A stretch of 64,000 nucleotides of DNA from Nitrospirota bacterium (lineage in GTDB: Bacteria; Nitrospirota; Leptospirillia; Leptospirillales; Leptospirillaceae). The notes under the pieces were generated by a model that worked only from the letters and a program-made list of their open reading frames with translations, searched no databases and was not told where the DNA came from. Shown piece by piece: positions 7,389 to 28,548 of this stretch; the first letter of the stretch is position 1, and the number at the start of each line of letters is the position of its first letter. The DNA is taken from positions 1 through 64,000 of the forward strand of contig JAMCWM010000012.1 of the NCBI GenBank assembly GCA_023481175.1, given 5' to 3'. Position numbers and translations under genes: made by a program.

Positions 7389-9170
7389 ATGCACGACTCT
7401 GCCGGCAACGAAGAGCCATGGGTGGACGTCAACCCCCCCCGTTCCGCGTCAGCACGTCCCGGGGAGATGGATGATCCGGGCGACTCCGAGATCTTCCGCC
7501 TCCGTCGACGCCTTGCCTTCCTCGAACAGATCGAGCGCTCCCACGCCGAAACCCGGGAAATGCTCGACTCCTCCGCCGAGATGAACCGGAAGCTCGAGGA
7601 GACCCTCAAAAAGGCCCGCAAGGAAATCCAGGCCCTCCGCGACGAACTGATCCGCCTGACAACGCCTCCCAACAGTTTTGCCGTCGTCCTCGGGACCAAT
7701 CTCCCGGCTCCGGGAGAAGTCTCGGCCCGGGGGGCCGCCGTCGAGGCCTCGGTCGACATCATCGTGGCCGGCCGCAAGATGCGGGTCAACATCGACCGGG
7801 CCATCGATCCGGACTCCGTCGCTCCCGGAGACGCCGTCCTTCTGAACGAGGCCTTCAATGTGGTAGGGAAGGCTCCGGGAGAGCGGCAGGGTGAGATCAT
7901 GACCGTGAAGGAGCTTCTGCCGGATGCCCGGATCCTGGTTTCCGGGGAGGCCGGAGTCGACCGGGTCGTCCTGCTCTCGCCCCTTCTTTCGGGAACCCCC
8001 CTGTCGGTGGGCGATCCCCTCATGGTGGACGTCCGCTCCGGATTCGCCCTCGAGAAGATGCCGAAGAGCGAGGTCGGACAGGTGGTGATCGAGGAGATCC
8101 CCACCGTGACCTTCGAGGACATCGGAGGGCTCGACGAAGAGCTCGAGATGGTCCGGGACGCGGTGGAGCTTCCCTTCCTCCATCCAGAACTCTTTACCCG
8201 CTATCAGCTCGAGCCCCCCAAAGGAGTCCTTCTCTATGGACCTCCCGGGTGCGGAAAGACCCTGATCGCCAAAGCCGTTGCCAATTCGGTCGGGCGCAGG
8301 ATGGCCGAACGGGGGGGAGAGGCCAGGTCCTACTTCCTGCACGTGAAGGGGCCGGAGCTCCTCAACAAGTATGTGGGAGAGTCGGAGCGCCAGATCCGGG
8401 AGGTCTTCGCCCGGGCCAGGGAAAAGGCCCAGGAAGGGCATCCGGTGATCGTCTTCTTCGACGAGATGGACTCCCTCTTCCGGACGCGGGGCACCGGCGT
8501 CTCCTCCGACATGGAAAGCACCATCGTCCCGCAGTTTCTGGCCGAGATCGACGGGGTCGAGCGGTTGCGGAACGTGATCGTGATCGGGGCCTCCAACCGA
8601 CAGGATCTCATCGATCCGGCCATCCTCCGCCCGGGACGTCTCGACGTCAAGATCCGGATCGACCGGCCCGACGAACGCAAGGCCCGGGCCATCTATCGCC
8701 GGTACCTGAACGAACGGGTGCCCCTGGCCGAGACCCTGACCGCGGGCCATGCCACTCTCTCCGAAGCGATCGAATTCCTGATCGACCGGACGGTTGAGTT
8801 CATGTACCGGAAGAGCGAGGAGAACCGCTTCCTCGAGGTCGCCTATGCCAGCGGGGAGAAGGAAGTTCTCTACTTCAAGGACTTTTCGAGCGGGGCGATG
8901 ATCTCTGGCATCGTGGCTCGGGCCAAGCAGACGGCCATCAAGCGCCAGCTGTCGGGAACCGGACCCGAGGGCCTCACCTTCGAGGACCTCTCCCAGGCCA
9001 TCCGCCGGGAGTTCCAGGAAAACGAGGACCTCCCCAACACCACCAACCCGGACGACTGGGCCCGCATTGCGGGACGCAAGAACGAGCGGATCGCAAGCGT
9101 CAAGACCCTCTCCTCCCGGGAGGCCCGGGAGCGGCCGGTGGAGACGATTCCCGTGGGGCACTACCTGTGA
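7389..9170 (+). CDS. arc: Proteasome-associated AAA ATPase ARC/Mpa
   Basis: N-terminal coiled coil (RRRLAFLEQIE...) is followed by an OB domain. Then an AAA module with GPPGCGKT Walker A and IVFFDEMD Walker B. C-terminal GHYL resembles the Mpa GQYL tail. RBS GGAGAAG precedes the ATG at 7389. Confidence 0.93.
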   Translation: MHDSAGNEEPWVDVNPPRSASARPGEMDDPGDSEIFRLRRRLAFLEQIERSHAETREMLDSSAEMNRKLEETLKKARKEIQALRDELIRLTTPPNSFAVVLGTNLPAPGEVSARGAAVEASVDIIVAGRKMRVNIDRAIDPDSVAPGDAVLLNEAFNVVGKAPGERQGEIMTVKELLPDARILVSGEAGVDRVVLLSPLLSGTPLSVGDPLMVDVRSGFALEKMPKSEVGQVVIEEIPTVTFEDIGGLDEELEMVRDAVELPFLHPELFTRYQLEPPKGVLLYGPPGCGKTLIAKAVANSVGRRMAERGGEARSYFLHVKGPELLNKYVGESERQIREVFARAREKAQEGHPVIVFFDEMDSLFRTRGTGVSSDMESTIVPQFLAEIDGVERLRNVIVIGASNRQDLIDPAILRPGRLDVKIRIDRPDERKARAIYRRYLNERVPLAETLTAGHATLSEAIEFLIDRTVEFMYRKSEENRFLEVAYASGEKEVLYFKDFSSGAMISGIVARAKQTAIKRQLSGTGPEGLTFEDLSQAIRREFQENEDLPNTTNPDDWARIAGRKNERIASVKTLSSREARERPVETIPVGHYL

Positions 9171-9220
9171 CCGAACCCCGGGAGAAGGCCCTCTCTCCCG
9201 CGGGGGGAGGAGGGATGGGA

Positions 9221-10768
9221 ATGCCCTGCTTCGGCCGCATCGTCGGCACGGAGGTCGAATACGGGATCTCCTTCGCATCGGGAACGATCGGAGACGCCCA
9301 GGGGGAGATCTCCCACGAGCTCGTCAACCGGCTTCCCGGTCTCTACGCCCCGGGCGCCCTCTGGGACTACGAGGAGGAGGATCCCTTCCTGGATGCCCGG
9401 GGCTTCCATGTCGAGGGAGACCGCGAACGGCCCGACCGGGGCGAAAACCGCTGGACGAACCGGGCCCTTTTCAATGGGGGACGCCTGTATGTCGACGGAG
9501 CCCATCCGGAGTATTCCGCCCCGGAGTGCACGAGCCTTCGGGATGTCGTCCGCTTTGAACGGGCCGGAGACCGGCTGGTCGAGGCCTGCCTCCTTTCCTG
9601 GGAGGCGGAGGACCCGGCGCGGCGGAGCCTCCGGGTCTTCCGGAACAACAGCGACGGATGGGGAAATTCCTGGGGATACCACGAAAACTACCTTCTCTCC
9701 CGGGAGCTTCCCTTCGACCGGATCATCGCGGGACTCACCGCCCATCTGGTGAGCCGGATCGTCTTCTGCGGGGCCGGGAAGACGGGATCGGACCGGGGAC
9801 GGGAAGGACCTCCCTACCAGCTCTCCCAGCGGGCGGAGTTCTTCGAGGTTCCGGTGGGGCTTTCGACCACCTCGCGGCGGGGGGTCGTCAACACCCGGGA
9901 CGAACCCCATTCCCGGAAGGAGGCCTACCGAAGGCTTCACGTGATCACCGGGGATTCGAACTGCTCCGAGATCGCGACGGCTCTCAAGGTCGGGTCCACC
10001 CTCCTCGTCCTGTGGGTGCTCGAGGAGAGCCACCGGCAGGGAGTTCCCCTCGACTTTCCCCTTCTGGCCGATCCCGTGGCGGCCTTCCACCAGATCTCGG
10101 CCGACCTGACCTTCGAAAAGCCGGTCGCCCTGGCCAACGGGAAGACGATCACGGCGCTCGGGATCGCGGAACGGTATCTCGAGAATGTCCGGCTCTGGTT
10201 TTCGCGGGAGGGAATGGACTCGGAGGTCCGGGATCTTCTGGACCGGTGGTCCGTTGTTCTCCGGCGTCTCGCAAGCTACCGGAGGGATCCGGCCGGCCTC
10301 GACCGGGAGCTCGACTGGGCGATCAAGCGGCGCATGATCGAGCGTTACCGGGAGTCGCGCCATCTCCCGGAGGGAGACCCGAGGCTCCGGATGCTCGACC
10401 TCCAGTACCACGATATCCGATCGGCGAGCGGGCTGTTCCGTCTTCTTGAGGCAAAGGGGGAGGTGGAGCGCCTTCTGGACCCGATGGAAATCGAAGAGGC
10501 CCTTCTCCACCCGCCTTCCGATACCCGGGCCTTCTTTCGGGGGACTCTCCTTCGACGTTTTCCGTCCGAGGTCGTGGCGGCCTCCTGGAGTTCGGTGGTG
10601 GTGGATGACGGAAGCCCCTCCCTGAAGCGGATCCCGCTCACCGATCCCTTCCGGGGAACGCAGAAGAGCGTGGGGGCGATCATCGACCGCGCCCAGAGCG
10701 CAAAACAACTGCTGGACGGGCTTTTGGCCAAGGGCGGTCCGTCCGGAACAAGCGAGGATTTGTCATGA
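9221..10768 (+). CDS. dop: Pup deamidase/depupylase Dop
   Basis: RIVGTEVEYGIS at the N-terminus is the carboxylate-amine ligase fold of Dop/PafA. About 515 aa, longer than the downstream paralog, consistent with the Dop loop insertion. It sits directly after arc. Start could instead be GTG 9167 or ATG 9215. Confidence 0.85.
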   Translation: MPCFGRIVGTEVEYGISFASGTIGDAQGEISHELVNRLPGLYAPGALWDYEEEDPFLDARGFHVEGDRERPDRGENRWTNRALFNGGRLYVDGAHPEYSAPECTSLRDVVRFERAGDRLVEACLLSWEAEDPARRSLRVFRNNSDGWGNSWGYHENYLLSRELPFDRIIAGLTAHLVSRIVFCGAGKTGSDRGREGPPYQLSQRAEFFEVPVGLSTTSRRGVVNTRDEPHSRKEAYRRLHVITGDSNCSEIATALKVGSTLLVLWVLEESHRQGVPLDFPLLADPVAAFHQISADLTFEKPVALANGKTITALGIAERYLENVRLWFSREGMDSEVRDLLDRWSVVLRRLASYRRDPAGLDRELDWAIKRRMIERYRESRHLPEGDPRLRMLDLQYHDIRSASGLFRLLEAKGEVERLLDPMEIEEALLHPPSDTRAFFRGTLLRRFPSEVVAASWSSVVVDDGSPSLKRIPLTDPFRGTQKSVGAIIDRAQSAKQLLDGLLAKGGPSGTSEDLS

Positions 10769-14791: not shown

Positions 14792-14832
14792 TTGAATGGA
14801 TATCATTCAAGGCATGAATGATATCCATTCAA
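14792..14832. promoter_or_regulatory. 18-bp perfect inverted repeat spanning the start codon of the DUF4143 ATPase gene
   Basis: Arms TTGAATGGATATCATTCAA (14792-14810) and TGAATGATATCCATTCAA (14815-14832) are exact reverse complements, separated by GGCA. ATG 14796 lies inside arm 1. Confidence 0.6.
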
Positions 14833-16067
14833 AAGACGAATTTGTTTACAGACCGAGATGGATTGTCCCTTTTCTTCGCCAGTCTCTCGAGGATCATCCG
14901 ATTCTCATTCTTGCCGGAGCTCGCCAGGTCGGCAAAAGTACCCTCCTGAGAGAAGAAGAACCGTTTTCCGGATGGAACTACCGGACGATGGACAACTACG
15001 ATACCCTGGAACAGGCGAAACGGGATCCGGCCGCCCTTTGGGCCGGAACGGACCGACTCGTCCTCGACGAAGTCCAGAAATCCCCCTCTCTCCTGTCGGC
15101 CGTCAAGGAGGCCGTGGACCGGAGCCGAAGGAAAATCCGGTTCGTGCTCTCCGGGTCCCAGAATCTTCTTCTTATGCAAAGAGTCACAGAAAGCCTGGCG
15201 GGACGGGCCGTGTATGCCTCCCTCCTTCCCATGGCCTGGGGGGAGCGAGCGTCACGCCCCCCCTCCCGCTTGATCGAAAATCTCTTTGCCGGAGAGTTCC
15301 CGGAGGAAGGCCCGCGGGGGAAAGGGGAGGAAGCCACCCAGGACATTCTTCTCCGGGGTCTTTTTCCTCCCCTTGAGACGTTGTCCTGGCCGGCGGGGGT
15401 TCTTGGATGGTGGGAAGGGTATGTCGCCACCTATCTCGAGCGAGATCTTCGCCAGATCTCTTCCGTGGAGTCGCTTCCGGATTTCAGGCGGGTCATGGAG
15501 GCCCTGGCGCTAAGAAGTGGGTCCATGCTCAACCAGACCGAAGTCGCCCGGGATACGGGAGTCAGCCAGCCGACCGTTCATCGTTACGTCAACCTCCTTG
15601 AAGTTTCGTCTCTTCTGACCCGTCTTCCAGCTTTTTCCAGGAACCGGACCCGGCGCCTCCTCAAATCCCCCAAGATCCACTGGATCGACCCCGCTCTGGC
15701 TGCCTATCTTTCCGGGTTGCACGATCCGCTGGCCTTCAAGCATTCCCGGGAGGCCGGAGCGCTTTTTGAGTCTCTCGTCTTTCTTCACATTCAGGTCCCG
15801 TCCGGCCTCATGGTCCCCAAACCCCGTCTCTTCCACTGGCGAACGGCGACGGGACAGGAGGTGGACTTCGTTCTGGAGCGGGGGAGACACCTCCTCGCGG
15901 TCGAGGCAAAATACACCACCGCCCCCCGTTATGCCGACACCAAGGGACTTCAGGACTTCATGGCGGAATATCCGGAAACGGTCGCCGGTCTTCTGGTTTA
16001 CGACGGAGATGAGATTCTGAGACTTCACGAAAAGATCGTGGCCCTTCCCTGGTATGTTCTCGGTTGA
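14796..16067 (+). CDS. AAA+ ATPase of the DUF4143 family (COG1373-like)
   Basis: ILAGARQVGKSTLL Walker A and RLVLDEVQKSP Walker B. The C-terminal part has the DUF4143 pattern (LNQTEVARDTGVSQPTVHRYVNLLE...FESLVFLH). 423 aa. Confidence 0.85.
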   Translation: MDIIQGMNDIHSKDEFVYRPRWIVPFLRQSLEDHPILILAGARQVGKSTLLREEEPFSGWNYRTMDNYDTLEQAKRDPAALWAGTDRLVLDEVQKSPSLLSAVKEAVDRSRRKIRFVLSGSQNLLLMQRVTESLAGRAVYASLLPMAWGERASRPPSRLIENLFAGEFPEEGPRGKGEEATQDILLRGLFPPLETLSWPAGVLGWWEGYVATYLERDLRQISSVESLPDFRRVMEALALRSGSMLNQTEVARDTGVSQPTVHRYVNLLEVSSLLTRLPAFSRNRTRRLLKSPKIHWIDPALAAYLSGLHDPLAFKHSREAGALFESLVFLHIQVPSGLMVPKPRLFHWRTATGQEVDFVLERGRHLLAVEAKYTTAPRYADTKGLQDFMAEYPETVAGLLVYDGDEILRLHEKIVALPWYVLG

Positions 16068-16724: not shown

Positions 16725-17816
16725 ATGAAAGTCCAGATCTCGAAGAAAAAAACCGAAACAGCCCGTAACGAAGCCGCGATCGAGCGCGTTTGCGTGGATC
16801 TTGCGAAGAGCACCTTTCATGTCGTGGGCCTCGATGCCGACAGAAAGACGGTTTTCCGGAGAAAGTTCAACCGGAAGGGCTTTCTCGAGTGGCTGGGAAC
16901 TCTTGAAAAAAAGGTTCTCGTGGTGATGGAGGCGTGTGCGGGGTCCCAGTGGTGGGGCCAACAGTGCCAGGCTCTGGGGCATACGGCGATGCTGATTCCT
17001 CCGCATCGAGTAAAGCCTTATGCTCTCTAGAAAAAAAATGATTTCAATGATGCGGAGGCCATGGGAGAAGCGTCCCGGAATCCCAAGACCGTTCCCGTTC
17101 CGGTCAAGACGCTCGAACAGCAGGATCTGGCCATGCTGATCGCGGCCCGGCAGGGGCTGATCGAGGAGCGCACCGCCCATGCCAACCGGATGCGCGCGTT
17201 TCTTCTGGAACGGGGGATCGCCCTTCCCAAGGGCATCCGGATCCTCCGGCACCAGATGTCCGATGTTCTGGACGACGGGACGAACGGATTGACCCAGATC
17301 GCGCGCACCTGTCTTCGGGAGATGCAGGCGCGGCTTTTGGAACTCGACGAGAAGATCGAGGAGATCGTCGGCATGATGGGTCAGATCGCAAGCCTCAACG
17401 AGGTGGGAAAGATTCTCCAGACGATTCCGGGATTCGGCCCCCTGATCGTCGCCGCCCTTGTGGCGGTGATCGGAGATCCCCGACGGTTCCGGTGCGGGCG
17501 CGACATGTCGGCTTATCTCGGGCTTGTCGTCCGGCAGAACACGTCGGGCGACAAGATCCGCCTGGGAGGCATCACCAAGCGGGGCGATGCGGGTCTTCGG
17601 ACGCTTCTCATCCATGGAGCCCGAGCCGCTCTCCGGTGTCTCGCGACCAAGGAAAACGGCAAGATGGGGAACGGCCGGCTTCGCGCCTGGTGCCTGGCCC
17701 TCCTGGAACGAAAGAGCAAGAAGAATGTGGTCATCGTGGCGTTGGCCAACAAGCTCGTGAGAATCGCATGGGCCGTCTGGACAAAGGGAACAGCCTTCAA
17801 TGCGGCGATCGCCTAG
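16725..17816 (+). mobile_element. IS110-family transposase gene interrupted by a single in-frame TAG (codons 16725-17027 and 17031-17816 in the same frame)
   Basis: N-terminal part: KVQISKKKTETARNEAAIERVCVDLAKSTFHVVGLDADRK...VMEACAGSQWWGQQCQALGHTAMLIPPHRVKPYAL. After the TAG (17028-17030) it continues KKNDFNDAEAMGEASRNPKTVPVPVKTLEQQDLAMLIAARQGL...LANKLVRIAWAVWTKG, matching IS110 transposases end to end. RBS TAGGAGT lies upstream. A perfect 9-bp hairpin (GGGAAGGCG...CGCCTTCCC) and an AT-rich leader sit upstream. Element ends are not determinable because IS110 lacks TIRs. Confidence 0.85.
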
Positions 17817-19933: not shown

Positions 19934-20817
19934 GGGGTGGACTTTCCTGTCATGCCGCCTTTTCGGAGGGCTAGGCCGAACAGGAGCGTCAGGGCTCCCA
20001 GAAGGGCCAGGCCGGCATGGAGCGCGTCGGACGAGCCGGTCCAGGTGGAGATCAGAAGCCCTGCGGCGATCGACAGGGTGACCTGAAGGTGGATCGAGCC
20101 CCAGAGGAGGACGAAGGATTGGGTCAGGCTCCGTTTCCGGAGGAAGTGGGTGAGGGTGAGGAGCTCCGGGGCTTCGGTCGCGATGGGGCCCAGGAGTAGC
20201 GCCGTCCAGAAGGAGGACAATCCAGAGGCCTCCTGGAGGCCGGCGATCCCCGACAGGAAGAGATGGCTTCCCAGACCCATCAGAAGGGCTCCTCCCCCGA
20301 CCGAGAGGCCGTCCTTCATGGACCAGCGCGCAGGGGAATCCCCGGCTCCCGTGGAGTCCTCATGGTCCGGAGAGGAGAGGAGCCCCCAGAGATACAGGGC
20401 TCCGAGCGCGAGCGCGAGGAGAGCCCGGAGAGGGAGGCTCCGGCCAAAGAGCAGGAGGGCCGCGGCGAGCCCCGCCGCCAGAAACGGAATCTCGCGGAAG
20501 AGGCTCCGGGCCTGGGCTCTCCCCAGAAAAAAGGCCAGGGGGACCAGAAAGAGGCTGAGAAAGAGGGGAGGGCCGAACAGGGCCCCGGTCCCGGCCTCGA
20601 TGAGGGAGCGGCCCGCTCCCGGTGTCAGAAAGGCGATCAGGGGGAGGATCAGTTCGGGAAGGGAAAGGGAGATATTCCCCAGAATCCGGAGCCCCCGGTT
20701 CCGGTTTTCGAAAAACCGCTCCACCGTGGCTTCGAGCGACCGGGTAAAGAGGGCCGATCCGGCCACGATGAGGAAAAAGCCGGTCGTCAGGGTGGCTCCC
20801 GCAGGGAGGAATGTCAT
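19930..20817 (-). CDS. Ca2+:cation antiporter (CaCA/YrbG-like, Na+/Ca2+ exchanger family)
   Basis: Two alpha-repeat motifs: ILGNISLSLPELILPLIAF and LLLGPIATEAPELLTLTHFLRK (the G-x-S/T-x-PE signatures of CaCA). Confidence 0.8.
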   Translation of the reverse strand: MTFLPAGATLTTGFFLIVAGSALFTRSLEATVERFFENRNRGLRILGNISLSLPELILPLIAFLTPGAGRSLIEAGTGALFGPPLFLSLFLVPLAFFLGRAQARSLFREIPFLAAGLAAALLLFGRSLPLRALLALALGALYLWGLLSSPDHEDSTGAGDSPARWSMKDGLSVGGGALLMGLGSHLFLSGIAGLQEASGLSSFWTALLLGPIATEAPELLTLTHFLRKRSLTQSFVLLWGSIHLQVTLSIAAGLLISTWTGSSDALHAGLALLGALTLLFGLALRKGGMTGKSTP

Positions 20818-21230
20818 CGGAAAAGGAACTCCTTGGAACCGGTCGTGGCTCTCTTCTGGGTATACGGTGTGGGCAGATAACGTTTCCTTCTCTTTGGCAG
20901 AGGCAAGGTGGTATCCATTCTAACTGCGGTTGTGCGGACAGTCATGAGAGTGTCGTGTTCCCCTGATTCCGAAATAGGGAGTCAAAAAAATAAACAAGCC
21001 CTCTTTACTGTTGGATTTTCGGTGAGGTATAATCTCACCTGTCAGGTGAAAACCATAACAGTATCGGAGGGCCAGGATCATGGTACGAAACGGACAGAAG
21101 GGAATCAAGCTGGAACGGACTTACGAACCCCTGACCGGTCAGGGAGGATATTTGCCCTTTTCGGGGGGTTGGAACGGGATCCTGGCCGGGGTATGATGGG
21201 AGAGTGTTCGCAACGCCCAAGGAGGTTTCC

Positions 21231-21794
21231 ATGAAAACGGCCAAGCTCAAAGAATGGACCTACGAAGACTATCTGGCGCTCCCCGAAGGGGATCCCTTTC
21301 GTTACGAGGTGATCAACGGAGACTTGTACATGACCCCTGCGCCCAATCTCAGACATCAGAGAATTTCCATGAATATTTCGAGAATCGTCAGTAGTTTTCT
21401 TCATCAGAATCCCCTTGGGGAGATTTTCTCCGCTCCTTGCGACGTGATCTTTGTCCCCGAACCTCTCCAATACGTGGAGCCGGATCTCGTATTCGTTTCG
21501 AAGGAGCGTTCGGCCATCCTCACCGAGAAAAATATTCAGGGAGTTCCGGACCTGCTCGTGGAGATCCTGTCCCAAACAACGAAAATAAGGGATCGCCGTC
21601 TGAAACTTTCCCTCTACGAACGGTTCGGGGTTCCCGAATACTGGATCGTCGATCCCGAGACGGAATCCGTCCAGGTCTTCCAGCTTGTCGACGGGCGCTA
21701 TCCGGCTTCTCTGGAATTTTGCAAGACGGACATTCTGGAATCCCCCCATCTTCCCGGTCTGGCGATTTCCCTCTCCGACGTGTTTTCCTCCTGA
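21231..21794 (+). CDS. Uma2-family (DUF820) putative restriction-endonuclease-like protein
   Basis: KLKEWTYEDYLALPEGDPFRYEVINGDLYMTPAPNLRHQRISMNI...VPDLLVEILSQTTKIRDRRLKLSLYERFGVPEYWIVDP is the Uma2 PD-(D/E)xK pattern. RBS AAGGAGG lies 6 nt before the ATG. Confidence 0.8.
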   Translation: MKTAKLKEWTYEDYLALPEGDPFRYEVINGDLYMTPAPNLRHQRISMNISRIVSSFLHQNPLGEIFSAPCDVIFVPEPLQYVEPDLVFVSKERSAILTEKNIQGVPDLLVEILSQTTKIRDRRLKLSLYERFGVPEYWIVDPETESVQVFQLVDGRYPASLEFCKTDILESPHLPGLAISLSDVFSS

Positions 21795-21798
21795 AAGC

Positions 21799-23502
21799 GT
21801 AACTACTCAGGTCAGGTTCTGCCCCGTCGGATTCACCGAGGGAGATTTCTGAACGCGCCAAAGTCCTGAGATCTTTTGAGCGGACAATCTTTTCAATCGG
21901 ACTGCTGGCTTTTTCCGAATTTCCCGTTTATCATGATCCCCATGACGACTCCCCATCCCGACAAAGACGCCCTTGTGGCTCTGGTACGATCCGACCCCGA
22001 ACAGTCCGTCGAACTCTTTCTGGAACTCCTCTCCCTTCTTGCGACGTCCGAGACAGAGATCCGGAGCCTGAAGGAGGAGATCAAAGAGCTCAAAGCTCGG
22101 CTGAACAAGAACAGCCAGAACAGCTCCAGACCTCCCTCGAGCGACGGCTACCGAAAACCCGCCCCCAAAAGTCTTCGGACTCCTTCCGGAAAGAAAACGG
22201 GAGGACAGCCCGGGCACGACGGAGACACGCTTCTCGCCGTTCCGGTCCCGGATCGGATCGTCGAGATTCCGGTCCTCTCCTGTTCCTGCGGGGCGGATCT
22301 CTCCGGGATCACGGCCTCGGAGTACGAAGCCCGCCAAGTCTTCGATCTTCCGGAACCCCGTCTCGACGTCACCGAATACCTCTCGGCAAAGTGTGCTGCC
22401 CGTCCTGCCGGAAGAGTGTGACCCCTCCGGCTCCCGAAGGGGTGACCGCTCCGACCCAGTACGGATCCCGTTTCAAGGCCGCCCTGGTCTACCTGCACGA
22501 GGACCAGGCCCTCCCCACGAACCGGGTCCGGCAGCTCTGTTCCGATCTCTTCGGAGCGGTCGTGAGCGAAGGGACCATTCTCGAGGCCAGCCGTCTCCTG
22601 TCCGGCCGGCTCGATCCCTTCGTCGAGCGCGTCCGGGAGCTCCTGGTCGCCGCCCCGGTCCTTCATGCCGACGAGACGGGACTCCGGGTGGCTTCCCGTC
22701 TTTCGTGGTGCCACGTCGCCTCGACGGAGAGAGTGACGCTTCTGGGTCTTCACGAGAAACGGGGACAGGAAGGCATCGACGCCCTCGGGGTGGTTCCCCA
22801 AGCCCTGGGAACCACCGTACACGACTTCTGGGGGCCCTATCTCTCCTACCCCGGACAGCACGCCTTCTGCAATGCCCATCTTCTCCGGGAGCTGACCGCT
22901 CTCGAAGAGTCCGACGGCCATCGCTGGGCCACGGAGATGAAAGAGTTCCTTCTCGAGACGAAGGCGGAGGCCAAATCCCGAACAGGGCCTCCCGACGAGA
23001 TCCGCCAGAAGGCCGTGCTCGATGCGATGAAGAGAATCCTCGACCGGGGATGGGAGGAGGCGGGACGTCCCGAAAAGCCCCGGAACTCCCGGGGACGTCC
23101 CAAGGCCACCCCCGCCCAGAACCTTCTTCGACGCTTTGAGGAGTACCAACGCCAGATTCTCGCCTTCTTCTTCGATCCGGCGATTCCGTTCACCAACAAC
23201 CAGGCAGAACAGGATCTCCGGATGGTCAAGGTCCGCCAGAAGGTCTCGGGAGGATTTCGGACCGACCGGGGAGCCCAGGTCTTCCTGACCATCCGGAGTT
23301 ATACCGGAACCCTCCGGAAACAGGGCCGAGATGTCTGGGCCGGCCTGACACGGGCCATGAAGGGACTTCCCTTCCTCCCCTCCGACGCCTGATCTCCCTC
23401 TTCTGTCTCCCCGGACATCCTTCCTGATCCTTCTCGAACCCTCCTGCCTCGATCTCTCCCAACTCCTGCGTGTTCATCTCGTGGGGCTCGGGACTTGACC
23501 TG
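21799..23502 (+). mobile_element. Single-ORF IS66-family element with terminal inverted repeats; transposase frameshifted
   Basis: IRL GTAACTACTCAGGTCAGG (21799-21816) matches the reverse complement of IRR CTTGACCTGAGTAGTTAC (23485-23502) at 17/18. The internal ORFs (21933..22421 plus 22391..23392) have the IS66 TnpC hallmarks: SSRPPSSDGYRKP, GKKTGGQPGH, a zinc-finger region, DETGLRV and FFFDPAIPFTNNQAEQDLRMVK. The frame shifts near 22400. The element is inserted 5 bp after the Uma2 stop. Confidence 0.8.
21933..23392 (+). pseudogene. IS66-family transposase (TnpC-like), disrupted by a frameshift near 22390-22420
   Basis: Two consecutive ORFs in different frames together cover a full-length IS66 transposase. 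Confidence 0.75.
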
Positions 23503-23559
23503 AGTAGTTACCCGTGTTCTAGGGGATTGACAGAATTGCAGGGACTCAACCCATGAATT

Positions 23560-25002
23560 TCAACTAGTCTTGGTCGGTTTTACGCCACCTTTGCGGCCCA
23601 ATCCGAAGCCGACCCGATACAGATCGGGCATATCGATGCGCCCGTCCGACCGGATAGTGAAAATCCCCAATCGAACCAAATCATCCCGAACGCCATTCCA
23701 GCCTTGTCCAGCATGTTGCGGCGGCAAGCGATCCGAGCGGATGTTATTCGGGCCGTCGGGGAACTTCTGATTCCAGGATTCCATGATTTCACCATAATCA
23801 ACGGGCACGTTCTTCCCTTTCAATGGCCCCATGACATGAGACACCCAGGGATCATCCTCGGCTACTTCCGAGACCCGAATTTCCGATGCTTTCTGAATGC
23901 CACGCTTGAGGCTCTCGTAATGCATCGCAAGCGGATAGTCCCCATAGCGCGCATCGCTATCTTCGGCGGCACCTCGAATGGCTGCCAGGAAAGACCGAGG
24001 TGACGTAAGTCCGTGGCCATCGGCGAGATGGCTGACGCTCCACACATAGGGCACCCCACGGCGCGCATCCTTTCCCATTTTGTCGCCCGCCAGGATCTCG
24101 AACAGGAGCCGCTGATAGGGTGGCTCGGATGTCAGCTGAGCGGGCAAACGCCATACTGGGCCATCCCCCCAGGCGCTTTCCCGGATCAGGACCGAAGATA
24201 CTACGGCACGCATGCACTCCCCGTTATTTTTCGGCGCGTTGATGAGGCGCTGCCACATCATGGCATGAAGGTCATGTCGTTCCCACGTCAGGTCGGCACG
24301 CGTCGCCATCAGTTTGGAGGCGTCGACGAATGCGGTTGTCGATAGCTGCAACTGATCGGGTCGCAAAAATACTTTGGCCCGAAGACGTGAAAAATCACGC
24401 AGTCTCAAAGCCAACCGCAAGAGACCCTGAACGATGCGGTCCATCTCGGCCCATTGGTGGCTGGTGCGATCCAGTGCATCGAACACAAGGAGGACAAAGT
24501 GATTGTTTTCAGCCAGTTTCGCATCAGCCTCTTCGATCAGGCGTGCGACCGGTTCAGGGTTCTGGACGATCCACTTTACCGTGGTTTCCCAGGAATCCGC
24601 GGGCACCGACTTCCCGATGATGTTGGCCAGCCTGCGCGCCACCACGGCACGCCAAATGATTTCCGGATCGTAGTTCCTGTCGACTAGAAACTTGAATGTG
24701 TTTTGATCCGGATAGTGTTGGATATCGGGTTTTGCCGCATGGCCGACCCAGATCCTGGCATGGGCCAGATCGGTCACCGATGCCCCGATTTGCTGACGCA
24801 GAATGTCATTGCTCAAAACGGCGGTCCAGAAAGATTTTCCAACGCCGCGAGCACCCACGACCAACGAGCCGTCAAGAGAAAGCGCCTTGCGATGAGCGGG
24901 AGGGAGATAAAGGGTACCCGGACTGGGCACCTCATCTCCCTTGGTATCCAGTTCGAAAGGCGCAGTCATGATGGCCCGGCGGATTTCCCTTGCGCTACTC
25001 AA
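23560..25002 (-). CDS. STAND/NACHT-like P-loop NTPase, unknown function (gene C of a 3-gene operon)
   Basis: Walker A VVGARGVGKSFW and Walker B-like HFVLLVFDALDRT (hhhhDxhD, as in STAND NTPases). About 470-480 aa. Start is either TTG 25002 (TTGA overlap with the upstream stop) or ATG 24969. Confidence 0.7.
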   Translation of the reverse strand: MSSAREIRRAIMTAPFELDTKGDEVPSPGTLYLPPAHRKALSLDGSLVVGARGVGKSFWTAVLSNDILRQQIGASVTDLAHARIWVGHAAKPDIQHYPDQNTFKFLVDRNYDPEIIWRAVVARRLANIIGKSVPADSWETTVKWIVQNPEPVARLIEEADAKLAENNHFVLLVFDALDRTSHQWAEMDRIVQGLLRLALRLRDFSRLRAKVFLRPDQLQLSTTAFVDASKLMATRADLTWERHDLHAMMWQRLINAPKNNGECMRAVVSSVLIRESAWGDGPVWRLPAQLTSEPPYQRLLFEILAGDKMGKDARRGVPYVWSVSHLADGHGLTSPRSFLAAIRGAAEDSDARYGDYPLAMHYESLKRGIQKASEIRVSEVAEDDPWVSHVMGPLKGKNVPVDYGEIMESWNQKFPDGPNNIRSDRLPPQHAGQGWNGVRDDLVRLGIFTIRSDGRIDMPDLYRVGFGLGRKGGVKPTKTS

Positions 25003-26282
25003 GAAAATTCTCCGGAAAGGGTGCGCTCCAGAAACTCCAGAAGTGGGCCATAAACCAACCGGACTTCGTCGTCATCCACCTGTGTCATGCGTCCATGCAG
25101 GCTCATCAGGCCGTACCACCCCCGGTTCCATCGGATAGGCAAGGGCATGTGCGGGGCGTATTCGTCATCGGGCTCGTAGTTCCATCCGCCAGTTTCGCCT
25201 GGCCCTGTTTCATCGTAGGTCGTTTCGAAAAGGTCGTAGGCATCTTTGCGTAGCCTTGCAAGGTAATCCGCTCTCCGTTCATCGTCCGGTACCAGGCCCG
25301 CAACCAATTGCAGACGCTCGCGTATTTTGGTGATAACCCCACGGCTCTGCCAATGGGCGAACAAGGATCGGTAGCCGGTCCATGTTTGCTGGCCCTGAAT
25401 TGCGAACAGCATGATCGTGTGAGCCCCCAGATCAGTGACGCAGGCAGCCGCCACCTCGTCGATGCCTGCGCGCGAATCGATCAGAACGATCTCGGGATGC
25501 AGCCGTGCTTCCAGCGCCCCGATCAACCGGTTCAGGCGGGAGGACCACGCTTCGGGTTGCAAGGGGTTCTTCAGCTTGGGCATCCATACACGCCCCAACT
25601 TGGAGACATATTCCCCCGGATCTTGCCCGTGCGAGGGAACGATATGAATAGAGCCATCCGTGGGCAAATCACTCATTGCGAACAGGCTGTCGATCAGTCC
25701 CTCTCCGTTATCGACGAGATCTTCCACCAGCCAGTCGGTGATGCCGTACTTTGGTTGGCGTTCATCCGGCAGCAAGGCGCTCGAAAGACCCGGCGATTCC
25801 AGATCCAGGTCCAGCACCAACACTTTTTTCCCAAGCCTGGCCAGGTGCCAGGCGCTTGCTGCAAGCGCCGTTGAGCGACCCACCCCGCCTTTGATCGAGA
25901 AAAACACGATTCGCGGGACATCCTCGGCCACATTCTTGATCGGCACCCACTGGCTCTCGCTGGCCAAGCGATCGACGACCCAAACCCTATCGAAATCCTC
26001 CAGCGCGAATCGTATAGTCCCTTGGCAAGCCTGGTCGATGTCCTGCTCGTACAGGATGCCGCACTCGACCGGATATCCGTGCGGTTCGATATCCTCGGCA
26101 AGGGTCCGATAGAGATTCTCGACCCGAACGCGTTGCTCTCCTTCGATACGCTCGGACACGATGAATCGTACCCGACCGTTGAGGTCGCGGTTGATCAGCA
26201 GCCAGTCCAGATCAGCCAGAAGACCGGAAGAGGTTCGGAGCACCCGGGCCACAGTGGGCAGTATTTGATCGAACGTCGTCAT
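24999..26282 (-). CDS. ParA/MinD-like (SIMIBI) ATPase with about 140-aa N-terminal extra domain; unusual KGGVGRST P-loop (gene B)
   Basis: IVFFSIKGGVGRSTALAASAWHLARLGKKVLVLDLDLESPGL is the deviant Walker A KGGxG[K>R]ST plus the ParA-type DLD motif. ATGA overlap with the upstream gene. Confidence 0.75.
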   Translation of the reverse strand: MTTFDQILPTVARVLRTSSGLLADLDWLLINRDLNGRVRFIVSERIEGEQRVRVENLYRTLAEDIEPHGYPVECGILYEQDIDQACQGTIRFALEDFDRVWVVDRLASESQWVPIKNVAEDVPRIVFFSIKGGVGRSTALAASAWHLARLGKKVLVLDLDLESPGLSSALLPDERQPKYGITDWLVEDLVDNGEGLIDSLFAMSDLPTDGSIHIVPSHGQDPGEYVSKLGRVWMPKLKNPLQPEAWSSRLNRLIGALEARLHPEIVLIDSRAGIDEVAAACVTDLGAHTIMLFAIQGQQTWTGYRSLFAHWQSRGVITKIRERLQLVAGLVPDDERRADYLARLRKDAYDLFETTYDETGPGETGGWNYEPDDEYAPHMPLPIRWNRGWYGLMSLHGRMTQVDDDEVRLVYGPLLEFLERTLSGEFS

Positions 26283-26695
26283 AAGATCCCGTCCCGTTTG
26301 GCCTTTTGAATCAGTCGGCAGACTGCCTTTGCGCCTGCTTTATGGGATTGTACCAGCTCTTGATCGAAGCCTGACTGATGGGCGTAGCGTTGCGAAGCAT
26401 TCCAGTTATGGAACGGGTTCGACGTGGGTAAGGGATAGGCCATTCCCCGATGATGTCCACAGCGATAGCTTTCAAAGCGGTCCCAGATACCGTTCGCATG
26501 CTCCCGATCCTGACTATTATCAGGACGATCCCTGGTCGTGTCGTAGGGCATGCCAAAGATCAGCATCAACCGTTTCAGTCCACACTCCGCAGCCAAGCCA
26601 TAAAGATGGTCGGCATTCGCCCAACGGTGAGCCTGAAGCAAACGCTCCGCATCCTCCCAGTGTCTGTCGTGCGCATCAAGAAAATCCGTTTTCAT
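26279..26695 (-). CDS. Small hypothetical protein (139 aa), first gene of the 3-gene operon (gene A)
   Basis: MKTDFLDAHDRHWEDAERLLQAHRWANADHLYGLAAECGLKRLM... Strong RBS GGAGGGG 2 nt before the ATG. No recognisable domain. AT-rich putative promoter region upstream (26700-27000). Confidence 0.6.
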   Translation of the reverse strand: MKTDFLDAHDRHWEDAERLLQAHRWANADHLYGLAAECGLKRLMLIFGMPYDTTRDRPDNSQDREHANGIWDRFESYRCGHHRGMAYPLPTSNPFHNWNASQRYAHQSGFDQELVQSHKAGAKAVCRLIQKAKRDGIL

Positions 26696-27306
26696 TTCCC
26701 CTCCGTTAAGTCTCAAAGAGATGATTTTCGAGTTGGCACCAGCTCCCCCACACACCATAAAAAAATTCTTTAGGCCAAGGAGGCTTGTGTTTAGCGGAGA
26801 CCAGAACGACAGTCATCATGACAGCCGCACTTCCAAAAATCGGATTCAGGACTGCTCCAGACAAGGGGATTTTTATAAAAATGTCGAAAATAAGTCTTTT
26901 TGTCAAATTCCTTTTTCGTCTCGACAATCGTTTTCCTGTTGCAGGAGTTCAGGGGTTCCAGGAAGTTTTCCAGAAATCCTTCATGGGAGAAGACCGCCTA
27001 TCTGTGGCGAACTTTGAAGGAGAATTTTCATTCTTGCCCCGAAGGACAGATCGAAAGCCTTGCGCACCCTGTAAAACCCGTGGTCGGACGAGTCGGGGCC
27101 GGGAAAGAGGATCTCGGGACCTTTGGGAGCGGACAAGCCAAGAACCGGATTTGCGAAAAGGGGGAGAAATTCAGGAACGGGAAGCGATTTTCAAGAACGA
27201 TCCGATTTTCTTGTGGGGGGGCTCCTCTTCCCGTCCTGACCCCCAGCCTGATCCACGATGGTGTCACGATTTTGCCCGGCACGATTCCGGAAAGATCCGG
27301 AGGAAA

Positions 27307-28548
27307 TCAGGCTTCCTCCGCATTTTGGGAGAGCCCGACCGCGGCGGACGAGGGCTCTCCGAGCCTTGCCGACCGATACAGGACCAGGAAGAGGAACAGG
27401 GAGAGTCCCGCCAGAGATCCGGCCAGGATCAGAGGCGTATCCGTGTCCCGGGCCTGCCAGAGGAGTCCGGCTATGAGGGGACCAGCGATCTGGGCGGCCT
27501 GGAGGGAGGAGAGGTGAAGGCCGGCCGCCAGACCTGTCCGGTGGGGAGGAACAAGGGAGAGCGCCAGGGCCTGCCGGATGCCTCCGGGGGCCTTGATCCC
27601 CGCAAGCCGGACGGTGTAGAGAAGGACGGCCGGTCCCAGGAAGGGGGAGAGAGGCAGGAGAAGGCCCGCCACGAAGGAAATCGCGGAGATCGCGAGGACG
27701 GTCTCCGGCATCATTCGGGATTTCCCCATCCGGGCGAGAAGGGCGGAGACGAGAGAGGCCGAAAGGTAGGCCAGGGCCAGGAAAAGGGCGGTCTCCCCGG
27801 GACCGGCATGGAAGCGGATCAGGAACCAGTAGGCGATCACCGGATCGACCAGTCCCAGGGCAAGTCCCCCGGAAATGTTCGTTGCGACCAGCAGGACCAG
27901 GCGGCGCTTTTCCCGGGAGGAAAGGCGCGCGGGGGAAGGGAGGGCCGCCGGCTTCGGGCGTGGCTCCGTCCCGGCCGGACCCGGAAGGAGGGCTGCGAGA
28001 AGAAAGCTTCCGAGGGAGAGAAGGAGCAATCCTGAAAGCCCGACCCGGAGACCGGCCGCCGGGGCGGGATTCAGCGTCCCGGAAAGAAAGGCGCCGGCGG
28101 CCATTCCCAGAAGCCCCAGGGCCATGTTGGTTCCGAAGTGGAAAAAAGGAGCGGACGGAAGGGGGAGCCGGGCCAGGAGCACCTGCTCGGAGGGTGCCCA
28201 GGGGCCAGGGGAACCGTTGCTTCTCTGCCCGGCTCCGGCCAGGAAAATGGCAATGGCCAGGGAAAGAGGCGCCGGATGGAGGAGGAAGGGAAGGGCGGAG
28301 AGGGCATTGGCCATTTCTCCGGCCATGAGGAGCCGGCGCGGGGAGATCCGGTCGGCGACGGGGCCCATGCAAAGGGTGAGGAGGAAGTCCGCAAGGAGGC
28401 CTCCCGAAAGGGCGCCCCCCATCTGGAGGCTCGACCAGCCCAGCGCATGGAGGTCCGGAAGGAAGCAGGCGACCAGGTAGCCCTGGACGATCCCCCGGAG
28501 CCCCCTGGCAAGACCCAGGAGCACAGGGATCCCTTCGAGCGGCCTCAC
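27307..28548 (-). CDS. MFS transporter
   Basis: 12 TM-like hydrophobic segments. GTG start overlaps the stop of the upstream GT9 gene (GTGA). The long upstream ORF extensions were rejected. Confidence 0.75.
   Translation of the reverse strand: MRPLEGIPVLLGLARGLRGIVQGYLVACFLPDLHALGWSSLQMGGALSGGLLADFLLTLCMGPVADRISPRRLLMAGEMANALSALPFLLHPAPLSLAIAIFLAGAGQRSNGSPGPWAPSEQVLLARLPLPSAPFFHFGTNMALGLLGMAAGAFLSGTLNPAPAAGLRVGLSGLLLLSLGSFLLAALLPGPAGTEPRPKPAALPSPARLSSREKRRLVLLVATNISGGLALGLVDPVIAYWFLIRFHAGPGETALFLALAYLSASLVSALLARMGKSRMMPETVLAISAISFVAGLLLPLSPFLGPAVLLYTVRLAGIKAPGGIRQALALSLVPPHRTGLAAGLHLSSLQAAQIAGPLIAGLLWQARDTDTPLILAGSLAGLSLFLFLVLYRSARLGEPSSAAVGLSQNAEEA

Follow-up and report, generated by a model that had tools for sequence, protein, structure and literature searches.

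The closest described counterpart of the locus reported here is PDC-M28, also listed as cassette CAS_00115, a candidate defence system that was predicted by "guilt-by-embedding" (Payne et al., 2024, bioRxiv 10.1101/2024.01.29.577857). The literature that we searched held no experiment on PDC-M28 and described neither its domains nor an activity or mechanism, and several other PDC candidates gave no protection when tried by other groups. A second point of reference is the dyad of a MAE_18760-family HEPN protein and a ParA/Soj-like ATPase, which was predicted as a toxin-antitoxin pair with the ATPase proposed to control the HEPN toxin (Anantharaman et al., 2013, PMC3710099). Two groups of defence proteins are also relevant, namely the STAND/ORC-Cdc6-type NTPases (Avs, bacterial NACHT, BrxC and RADAR RdrA) and the HEPN abortive-infection or toxin proteins (HepT/MntA, AbiV, the AbiA C-terminal domain, Csm6 and ApeA). 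The same literature held nothing relevant on KGGVGR, on Sll1717 or on a defence system that combines HEPN with a ParA-like ATPase, and a STAND survey (Nature, 2026) and a BREX survey (NAR, 2026) make no mention of a ParA partner.

The locus lies in a 64,000-nucleotide stretch of a Nitrospirota bacterium genome (hereafter the window), where we termed its three genes A, B and C. The features referred to below are as follows.

26279..26695, minus strand: gene A, 138-aa HEPN-fold protein, PDC-M28A
26698-26704, minus strand: ribosome-binding site (RBS) of gene A, GGAGGGG
24999..26282, minus strand: gene B, 427 aa, N-terminal domain of about 120 aa followed by a SIMIBI NTPase, PDC-M28B
25869..25892, minus strand: deviant Walker A of B, KGGVGRST, with the signature Lys131 kept and Arg136 in place of the canonical P-loop Lys
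23560..25002, minus strand: gene C, 480-aa AAA+ NTPase, PDC-M28C
24832..24855, minus strand: Walker A of C, GARGVGKS
24463..24492, minus strand: Walker B of C, LLVFDALDRT
21799..23511, plus strand: IS66-family element with DUF6444 and DDE_Tnp_IS66 ORFs, a neighbour outside the system
26696..27306, no strand: upstream intergenic region, holding a 44%-GC stretch at about 26700-27000

The ORF listing of the window gives A, B and C as three overlapping minus-strand ORFs, and on the source contig the JGI gene caller predicts the same three ORFs, with 138, 427 and 480 aa. A and B overlap by the 4 nt ATGA at 26279-26282, and B and C by the 4 nt TTGA at 24999-25002, where the TTG start of C lies on the stop of B; the translational coupling proposed in the initial annotation is thus borne out. 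All three proteins match PADLOC-DB models end to end, namely PDC-M28A (E 2e-56), PDC-M28B (model PDLC04559, E 1e-170) and PDC-M28C (E 4e-192), and the genes follow the PDC-M28 order A, B, C, adjacent on one strand (26695 to 23560, minus). The locus is therefore a standard, apparently intact copy of PDC-M28, with the same three proteins, order and strand, and an ordinary member of a catalogued candidate. The initial annotation could assign this architecture to no described system and had itself named an already catalogued defence system as the finding that would speak against its view; since PDC-M28 is such an entry, albeit a predicted one, that view has to be given up. What is new here is the ORC/STAND fold of C, the clade-wide P-loop Arg of B, the synteny, the B-C fusions and the embedding in defence systems.

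The product of gene A adopts the four-helix up-and-down fold of the HEPN superfamily, so that the statement that it has no recognisable domain does not hold. Its Foldseek matches to the HEPN fold are weak (E 0.2-2), no Pfam family matches it even at E up to 10, with HEPN and MAE_18760/MAE_28990-type models included, NCBIfam and PHROGs returned no match, and a PDB sequence-profile search gave chance-level matches only. Translation starts at the ATG at 26695 within a longest ORF that reaches 26758; the RBS reported for this gene is indeed present upstream, and the length of 139 given for the gene counts the stop codon, the protein having 138 residues. The N-terminus of the last helix reads R103-Y-A-H106 (Rx2H) rather than the canonical Rx4-6H, and H118 is conserved within the helix. 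A further R24-x5-H30 stands at the start of helix 2 in the close family and is lost in the distant subtype. Because of this loss and the missing canonical Rx4-6H, an RNase activity of A is uncertain. A shares the four-helix fold and the defence-linked context of HepT/MntA, AbiV, AbiA, Csm6 and ApeA, but differs from them in having no canonical Rx4-6H at the start of the last helix and in its partner, which is a ParA-like NTPase and neither a nucleotidyltransferase nor a CARF domain. The public name 'SAM-dependent methyltransferase' attached to A was rejected, the model being an all-helical bundle without a Rossmann fold.

Gene B belongs to NCBIfam family NF047398, 'KGGVGR-motif variant AAA ATPase', scoring 192.4 bits over residues 122-312 (cut-off 90). 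Its description as a ParA/MinD-type ATPase with Arg for Lys in the P-loop proved correct, as KGGVGRST places Arg136 on the P-loop Lys of KGGVGK when aligned by profile with ArsA and MinD, the PDB matches of B; of the two lysines of the deviant Walker A KGGxxK[ST] by which ParA/MinD proteins are recognised, the second is absent. The exchange is no oddity of this locus, given that the trait names the family. KGGVGRS is kept in 119 of 120 close homologues, none of the 150 readable representatives of the B clade (clusters at 50% identity) has Lys at that position, and across the whole clade the residue is Arg, rarely Cys or His, and never Lys. The N-terminal extension noted earlier is also real, at about 120 and not 140 aa, and its 122 residues match nothing in Pfam, NCBIfam or PHROGs.

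What would speak for a role in DNA partition or positioning, or for a secretion/cellulose-type ParA operon, is that B resembles CbiA, ParA, MinD and BcsQ models near its P-loop. The Pfam matches (CbiA, ParA, ArsA_ATPase) are confined to the P-loop region, the CbiA, ParA, MinD and BcsQ matches span just 40-60 residues or so, and the curated equivalogs ParA_partition, minD_bact and BcsQ score 20-29 bits, far under their cut-offs of 158-213. The canonical P-loop Lys is missing clade-wide, the window has no ParB, centromere repeat, repeat arrays or secretion gene near the operon, relatives occur in only 16 of 72,556 plasmid records, and the genes conserved beside B encode a HEPN-fold protein and an AAA+ NTPase. 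We therefore rejected a partition system, for want of a ParB and of the P-loop Lys and for its rarity on plasmids, and regard this whole class of explanations as highly improbable.

Gene C encodes an AAA+ NTPase of the ORC/Cdc6/STAND/'archaeal ATPase' kind without sensor repeats, much as the initial annotation had it from GARGVGKS and LLVFDALDRT. Its P-loop NTPase core has a Walker A, a Walker B of hhhhD type and the AAA+/STAND-like fold, and the C-terminal half that follows is helical and winged-helix-like. Residues G50, R52, G53, V54, G55, K56 and S57 of Walker A and F174, D175, A176, D178 and R179 of Walker B are invariant in 44 homologues. C stays below the Pfam gathering scores (NACHT 17.3 against 26.7 bits, AAA_16 23 against 32.6 bits), and PDB sequence-profile matches are at chance level. 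With NCBIfam NF047389, 'P-loop ATPase, Sll1717 family', it aligns at E 2e-17 and 63.4 bits, under the cut-off of 75, so that it is related to that family yet outside it. Both NF047389 and NF047398, whose motif B carries unchanged, are models that give a name but describe no function. Nothing in Pfam, NCBIfam or PHROGs matches the C-terminal 195 residues of C. C has in common with Avs, NACHT, BrxC and RdrA the AAA+ core, the Walker A and the hhhhDxxD Walker B; unlike them, its 480 residues hold no TPR, LRR or WD40 C-terminal sensor and no fused effector, and two partner proteins are needed.

Each of the three proteins has hundreds to thousands of homologues in many phyla. The co-occurrence of the triad across genomes, which the initial annotation had proposed as a check, was found as the order A-B-C in 75 of 80 species loci, covering Alpha-, Beta-, Gamma- and Deltaproteobacteria, Acidobacteria, Chlorobi, Chloroflexi, Verrucomicrobia, Synergistetes and Peptococcaceae, and the triad persists down to 31-38% identity of B. 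One embedded locus has B and C with no detectable A. B and C are fused into a single protein in three separate clusters, in one of which three contigs carry an A homologue ahead of the fusion. The closest relative shows 89.5% DNA similarity over 26729-23560 only, an interval that holds hardly more than the three genes, and its cassette likewise stands alone. The 4-nt overlaps, the gene order, the triad at low identity of B, the B-C fusions and this narrow extent of similarity all speak for one functional unit and against a chance neighbourhood. The cassette travels as a 3.2-kb unit, and in this genome, where it arrived by horizontal transfer, it stands alone. No relative of it was found in phage records, and it is absent from complete E. 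coli genomes.

A module that is small, mobile and translationally coupled, with a small HEPN protein as its first gene, could also be a toxin-antitoxin or addiction module in which A is the toxin and B, with or without C, the antitoxin, and whose main role would be to stabilise the genomic islands or defence operons around it and not to sense phage. The HEPN and ParA/Soj dyads predicted as such (PMC3710099) resemble it in that the small HEPN-fold A adjoins the SIMIBI ParA/Soj-like B with a 4-nt overlap, and PIN-type toxin-antitoxin genes and IS elements adjoin some loci. The locus differs from the dyad in its third conserved gene, in that A matches no Pfam HEPN family, and in the KGGVGR trait of B, of which PMC3710099 makes no mention. 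A plain pair would not be expected to include a 480-aa AAA+ NTPase that is conserved as strictly as the other two proteins and sometimes fused to B. The catalytic HEPN motif of A is non-canonical as well, the cassette is rare on plasmids, and we consider this reading unlikely. Toxin-antitoxin and abortive-infection roles can coexist.

In other genomes the cassette is found inside other defence loci. BREX-1 of Aeromonas has it between PglX and PglZ, BREX-2 carries it in Thiodictyon, Sphaerotilus and Streptomyces, and a DISARM-like locus holds it with a ThsB-TIR gene adjoining. In 14 of the 80 loci it is part of DUF499 systems, with the DUF1156 methyltransferase on one side and the PLD-SNF2 helicase on the other. 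This pattern agrees with how PDC-M28 was defined, and the embedded relatives fit that definition, whereas the present copy stands by itself. Relatives inside BREX-1, BREX-2, DISARM-like and DUF499/DUF1156 systems support the defence-like character that the initial annotation had read from the local context. Alternatively, the cassette might serve BREX/DISARM-type systems as an accessory or regulatory module, for example by guarding or tuning the methyltransferase or by backing up a system that phage inhibitors have disabled, with no activity of its own, in which case the present copy would be an orphan. However, no BREX-1, BREX-2 or DUF499-system marker was detected near most loci, this window included; of the 80 loci screened with those markers, 66 lacked them. 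The host systems belong to at least four unrelated kinds, as would rather be expected of an autonomous module that hitch-hikes; we hold a purely accessory role to be quite unlikely.

On balance, PDC-M28 is probably a module that acts autonomously against phages or mobile elements, by abortive infection or as a 'back-up', with two NTPases that would gate a HEPN effector. C, with intact Walker A and B, would be a nucleotide-driven sensor or assembler. B, as a ParA/MinD-type dimerising NTPase, may be a nucleotide-gated switch in physical coupling with C, hydrolysing slowly or not at all, and A would be the output, either as an RNase toxin that B and C restrain until triggered or as a nucleotide- or RNA-binding adaptor. 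A more specific version is tentative and we think it possible at best: a new three-component immune switch, where C is the sensor, coupled or in some lineages fused to B, a ParA-type dimer without its catalytic lysine that would be a nucleotide-gated clamp and not a motor, and where B and C together license the non-canonical HEPN effector A, giving back-up abortive infection next to methyltransferases inside BREX, DISARM and DUF499 operons. Such a back-up layer might fire once the BREX, DISARM or DUF499 systems are inhibited. If PDC-M28 is a working defence system, its mechanism would be new among characterised systems, with a degenerate-P-loop ParA/MinD protein as the regulator that links an ORC/STAND-like NTPase to a HEPN-fold output. 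Since a mobile 3.2-kb unit is found repeatedly inside BREX-type systems, knowing its role would help to explain layered immunity. Residues and constructs for testing follow from the folds assigned to A (HEPN) and C, from the B-C fusions and from the K-to-R exchange fixed in B.

As to the surroundings in the window, the operon has a GC content of about 55-58% against 65-70% in the flanks, and about 20800-27200 as a whole forms a lower-GC island, at whose edges neither a tRNA gene nor flanking direct repeats were found. The AT-rich stretch described at the upstream side is present (43.5-44% GC over 26700-26999), but it lies outside the conserved cassette, homology to the closest relative ending at 26729. 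It was rejected as a boundary of the system, being not conserved with that relative. The region at 26696..27306 is presumably the promoter region, specific to the locus and outside the mobile cassette; its AT-rich DNA matched no plasmid DNA, and an Rfam search of 20000-28000 returned no family. The IS66-family element does adjoin the module, with 19-nt inverted repeats at 21799-21817 and 23493-23511 that are 95% complementary and with no visible 8-bp target duplication. Given the position of the right repeat at 23493-23511, its distance from the stop of C is 48 bp instead of the 58 bp first given. The Uma2, DUF4143-ATPase, IS110 and IS66 neighbours are all present. The cassette is surrounded by housekeeping genes, IS elements and two further predicted candidates, with no validated defence system; the Uma2 and DUF4143 neighbours match PADLOC candidates PDC-S03 and PDC-S01, respectively, which also favours the defence-like reading.

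The three minus-strand genes, A (a small protein), B (a ParA-like ATPase) and C (a STAND-like NTPase), are a genuine feature that the initial annotation described accurately, and they are arranged as follows.

A: 26695-26279, minus strand, 138 aa, with an ATG behind the strong RBS GGAGGGG
B: 26282-24999, minus strand, 427 aa
C: 25002-23560, minus strand, 480 aa, with a TTG start

The ORF listing and the sequence place an ATGA overlap at the A/B junction (26279-26282) and a TTGA overlap at the B/C junction (24999-25002), and an independent gene caller on the public source contig (JGI metagenome 3300017831, 36 kb) made the identical three calls, all of which bear out the three overlapping co-directional genes first proposed. 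The motifs also read as noted, with KGGVGRST in B and GARGVGKS and LLVFDALDRT in C, and B does carry the extra N-terminal domain attributed to it, at ~120 aa rather than about 140 aa.

It had been claimed that this architecture could be assigned to no described system. The claim does not hold, since PADLOC-DB v2 lists the triad as candidate PDC-M28 and matches it over essentially the full profile of PDC-M28A (A, E 2e-56), PDC-M28B (B, E 1e-170) and PDC-M28C (C, E 4e-192); the architecture had therefore already been catalogued. PDC stands for “phage defence candidate”, of which 145 were derived by “guilt-by-embedding” in loci of BREX, DISARM and type I RM systems, and PDC-M28 corresponds to cassette CAS_00115, which occurs 121 times in RefSeq v209 (Payne et al., bioRxiv 10.1101/2024.01.29.577857). 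No experimental test of PDC-M28 was found in the literature searched. The ATPase domain of B matches the NCBIfam “KGGVGR-motif variant AAA ATPase” (192 bits vs. a cut-off of 90), so an Arg in place of the P-loop Lys is a trait that already has a named family, and C is related to the NCBIfam “Sll1717 family” (63 bits, under the cut-off of 75). The window triad is an ordinary member of this candidate family, and the remaining interest lies in the mechanism of PDC-M28 and in the testable annotations from the present analysis.

The triad behaves as a single unit. Scanning genomes with B as the anchor gave 80 species loci, and A-B-C keep the same order and strand in 75 of them, which answers the question of synteny raised by the initial annotation; four of the five exceptions lie at contig ends or hold only a partial A, and the remaining one has no A. 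The phyla involved include four proteobacterial classes, Acidobacteria, Chlorobi, Chloroflexi, Verrucomicrobia, Synergistetes and one Peptococcaceae member, and the three genes are still together where B identity falls to 31-38%. In the closest relative (C 90% identical) the cassette is flanked by unrelated housekeeping genes, and DNA similarity, at 89.5%, is confined to 26729-23560; the three genes are thus transferred together as a segment of 3.2 kb, without the AT-rich stretch that had been taken as a boundary of the cassette. Proteins of 915-935 aa in which B and C are fused form three clusters (30-46% identity between clusters), one of them directly behind an A homologue on three contigs. 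The locus without A (L040, MAG Pseudomonadota, about 7680-10520) has B and C inside a DUF499/DUF1156 system, with only about 137 nt between the methyltransferase gene and B, and represents a natural variant lacking A or else a copy in decay.

Embedding was seen in defence systems of four kinds. The cassette lies in the BREX-1 locus of Aeromonas, flanked by PglX and PglZ, in BREX-2 loci of Thiodictyon, Sphaerotilus and Streptomyces, next to a ThsB-TIR gene in a DISARM-like locus, and in DUF499/DUF3780 systems (Chloracidobacterium and 14 of the 80 loci), where it separates the DUF1156 methyltransferase from the PLD-SNF2 helicase; the last kind has been named “BREX-related type 2” (PMC12839542). 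A methyltransferase gene adjoins the cassette in every embedded case inspected. One rival reading makes the triad a dependent accessory of BREX-type systems. The window triad itself is standalone and not embedded. Plasmids seldom carry the cassette (16 of 72,556 records), and it is absent from phage records.

Further genes accompany some of these loci. In the DISARM-like locus (L099), which has a B-C fusion, the fusion is directly followed by a 145-aa gene and a ThsB-type TIR gene (7813-8765), which may be another embedded module. Six of the DUF499 systems above (L008, L012, L041, L021, L027 and L051) hold other embedded genes upstream of the DUF1156 methyltransferase gene, one encoding a Schlafen/AlbA_2, HATPase_c_4 and Fic-like_C protein and another a DarG-like macro-domain protein, and in Chloracidobacterium (L082-L084) a DUF4143 ATPase gene and an Mrr_N gene lie within a few kilobases of the embedded cassette.

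B is a SIMIBI NTPase, and in profile alignments with ArsA and MinD its Arg136 falls at the position of the P-loop Lys. Of 120 close homologues, 119 have KGGVGRS. When 1.84 billion cluster representatives were searched, 5,965 proteins matched B; among the best 150 of these, about 137 have KGGxGR[ST] motifs, a few have Cys, and none has Lys at the P-loop lysine position. The signature Lys is also missing from some distant members. This points to B as a binding or dimerisation switch and not a fast ATPase. Tandem B-B proteins, expected because the ParA/ArsA-type fold forms dimers, do exist (P0488, 907 aa; P0506, 918 aa), each with two KGGVGRS ATPase modules; they are ArsA-like pseudo-dimers and suggest that B works as a dimer.

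The predicted fold of A is an all-helical HEPN bundle, with a putative RNase role. Polar residues conserved across 85 distinct homologues, distant subtypes included, are R11, H12, D15, R24, N27, D29, E37, K41, H66, R103, Y104 and H118. Where the last helix begins, A reads R103-YA-H106 instead of the canonical Rx4-6H, and the Enterobacter-plasmid subtype has lost the R24-x5-H30 motif seen in the close family. Several public A homologues (e.g., P0012, P0015, P0039, P0086) are named “SAM-dependent methyltransferase”; the predicted helical fold gives this no support, so the name looks like a propagated annotation error.

For the triad, structure and family membership are observed, as are synteny, fusion and embedding; every functional step is inferred. 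The best supported reading is an autonomous module of abortive infection or back-up immunity, in which a nucleotide-driven sensor or assembler, C, would be coupled to a dimeric switch, B, that is gated by nucleotide and poor in hydrolysis, with the HEPN-fold protein A as the output, a putative toxin or adaptor. Among described ideas the nearest is the dyad of HEPN (MAE_18760) and ParA/Soj, a predicted toxin-antitoxin pair in which the ATPase would be the antitoxin (PMC3710099); the analysis did not place A in the MAE_18760 HEPN family. A second rival view takes the triad as no more than a toxin-antitoxin or addiction module. The third rival, a partition system, is rejected on its membership tests.

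On one flank of the triad lie MFS, glycosyltransferase and two-component genes. The other holds Na/Ca-exchanger-like and MFS genes together with the following.

14796-16067, plus strand: AAA_14/DUF4143 ATPase, PADLOC candidate PDC-S01 (E 3e-111)
16725-17816, plus strand: IS110-family transposase in two separate ORFs, DEDD_Tnp_IS110 (101 aa) and Transposase_20 (251 aa)
21231-21794, plus strand: Uma2-family (PF05685) gene adjoining IS66, end-to-end match to PADLOC single-gene candidate PDC-S03 (E 2e-44)
21799-23511: IS66-family element with 19-nt inverted repeats at 21799-21817 and 23493-23511, starting GTAAC

The PDC-S03 and PDC-S01 matches thus bring three candidates and two IS elements within about 12 kb, which is suggestive of a defence island, though one without a validated system; the neighbours cited as defence-island-like context are all present. 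In a cold-seep study, PDC-S01 was not among the four candidates giving protection (PMC12881386). GC content is about 55-58% in the operon, 44% at 26700-27000 and 65-70% in the flanks. The Uma2 gene, IS66 and the triad share a lower-GC island at about 20800-27200 (about 45-58%, genome 65-70%), which has a second low-GC stretch at 20800-21100 (46-50%); no tRNA gene or flanking direct repeats were found at its ends. No 8-bp target-site duplication is visible at the IS66 element, and its right inverted repeat ends 48 bp from the stop of C, not 58 bp as first measured. The IS66 transposase is split into two overlapping ORFs (DUF6444, 21876-22421; DDE_Tnp_IS66, 22391-23392), which could mean that the copy has decayed or suffered a frameshift, or that frameshifting is programmed, and the two ORFs of IS110 suggest a disrupted copy.
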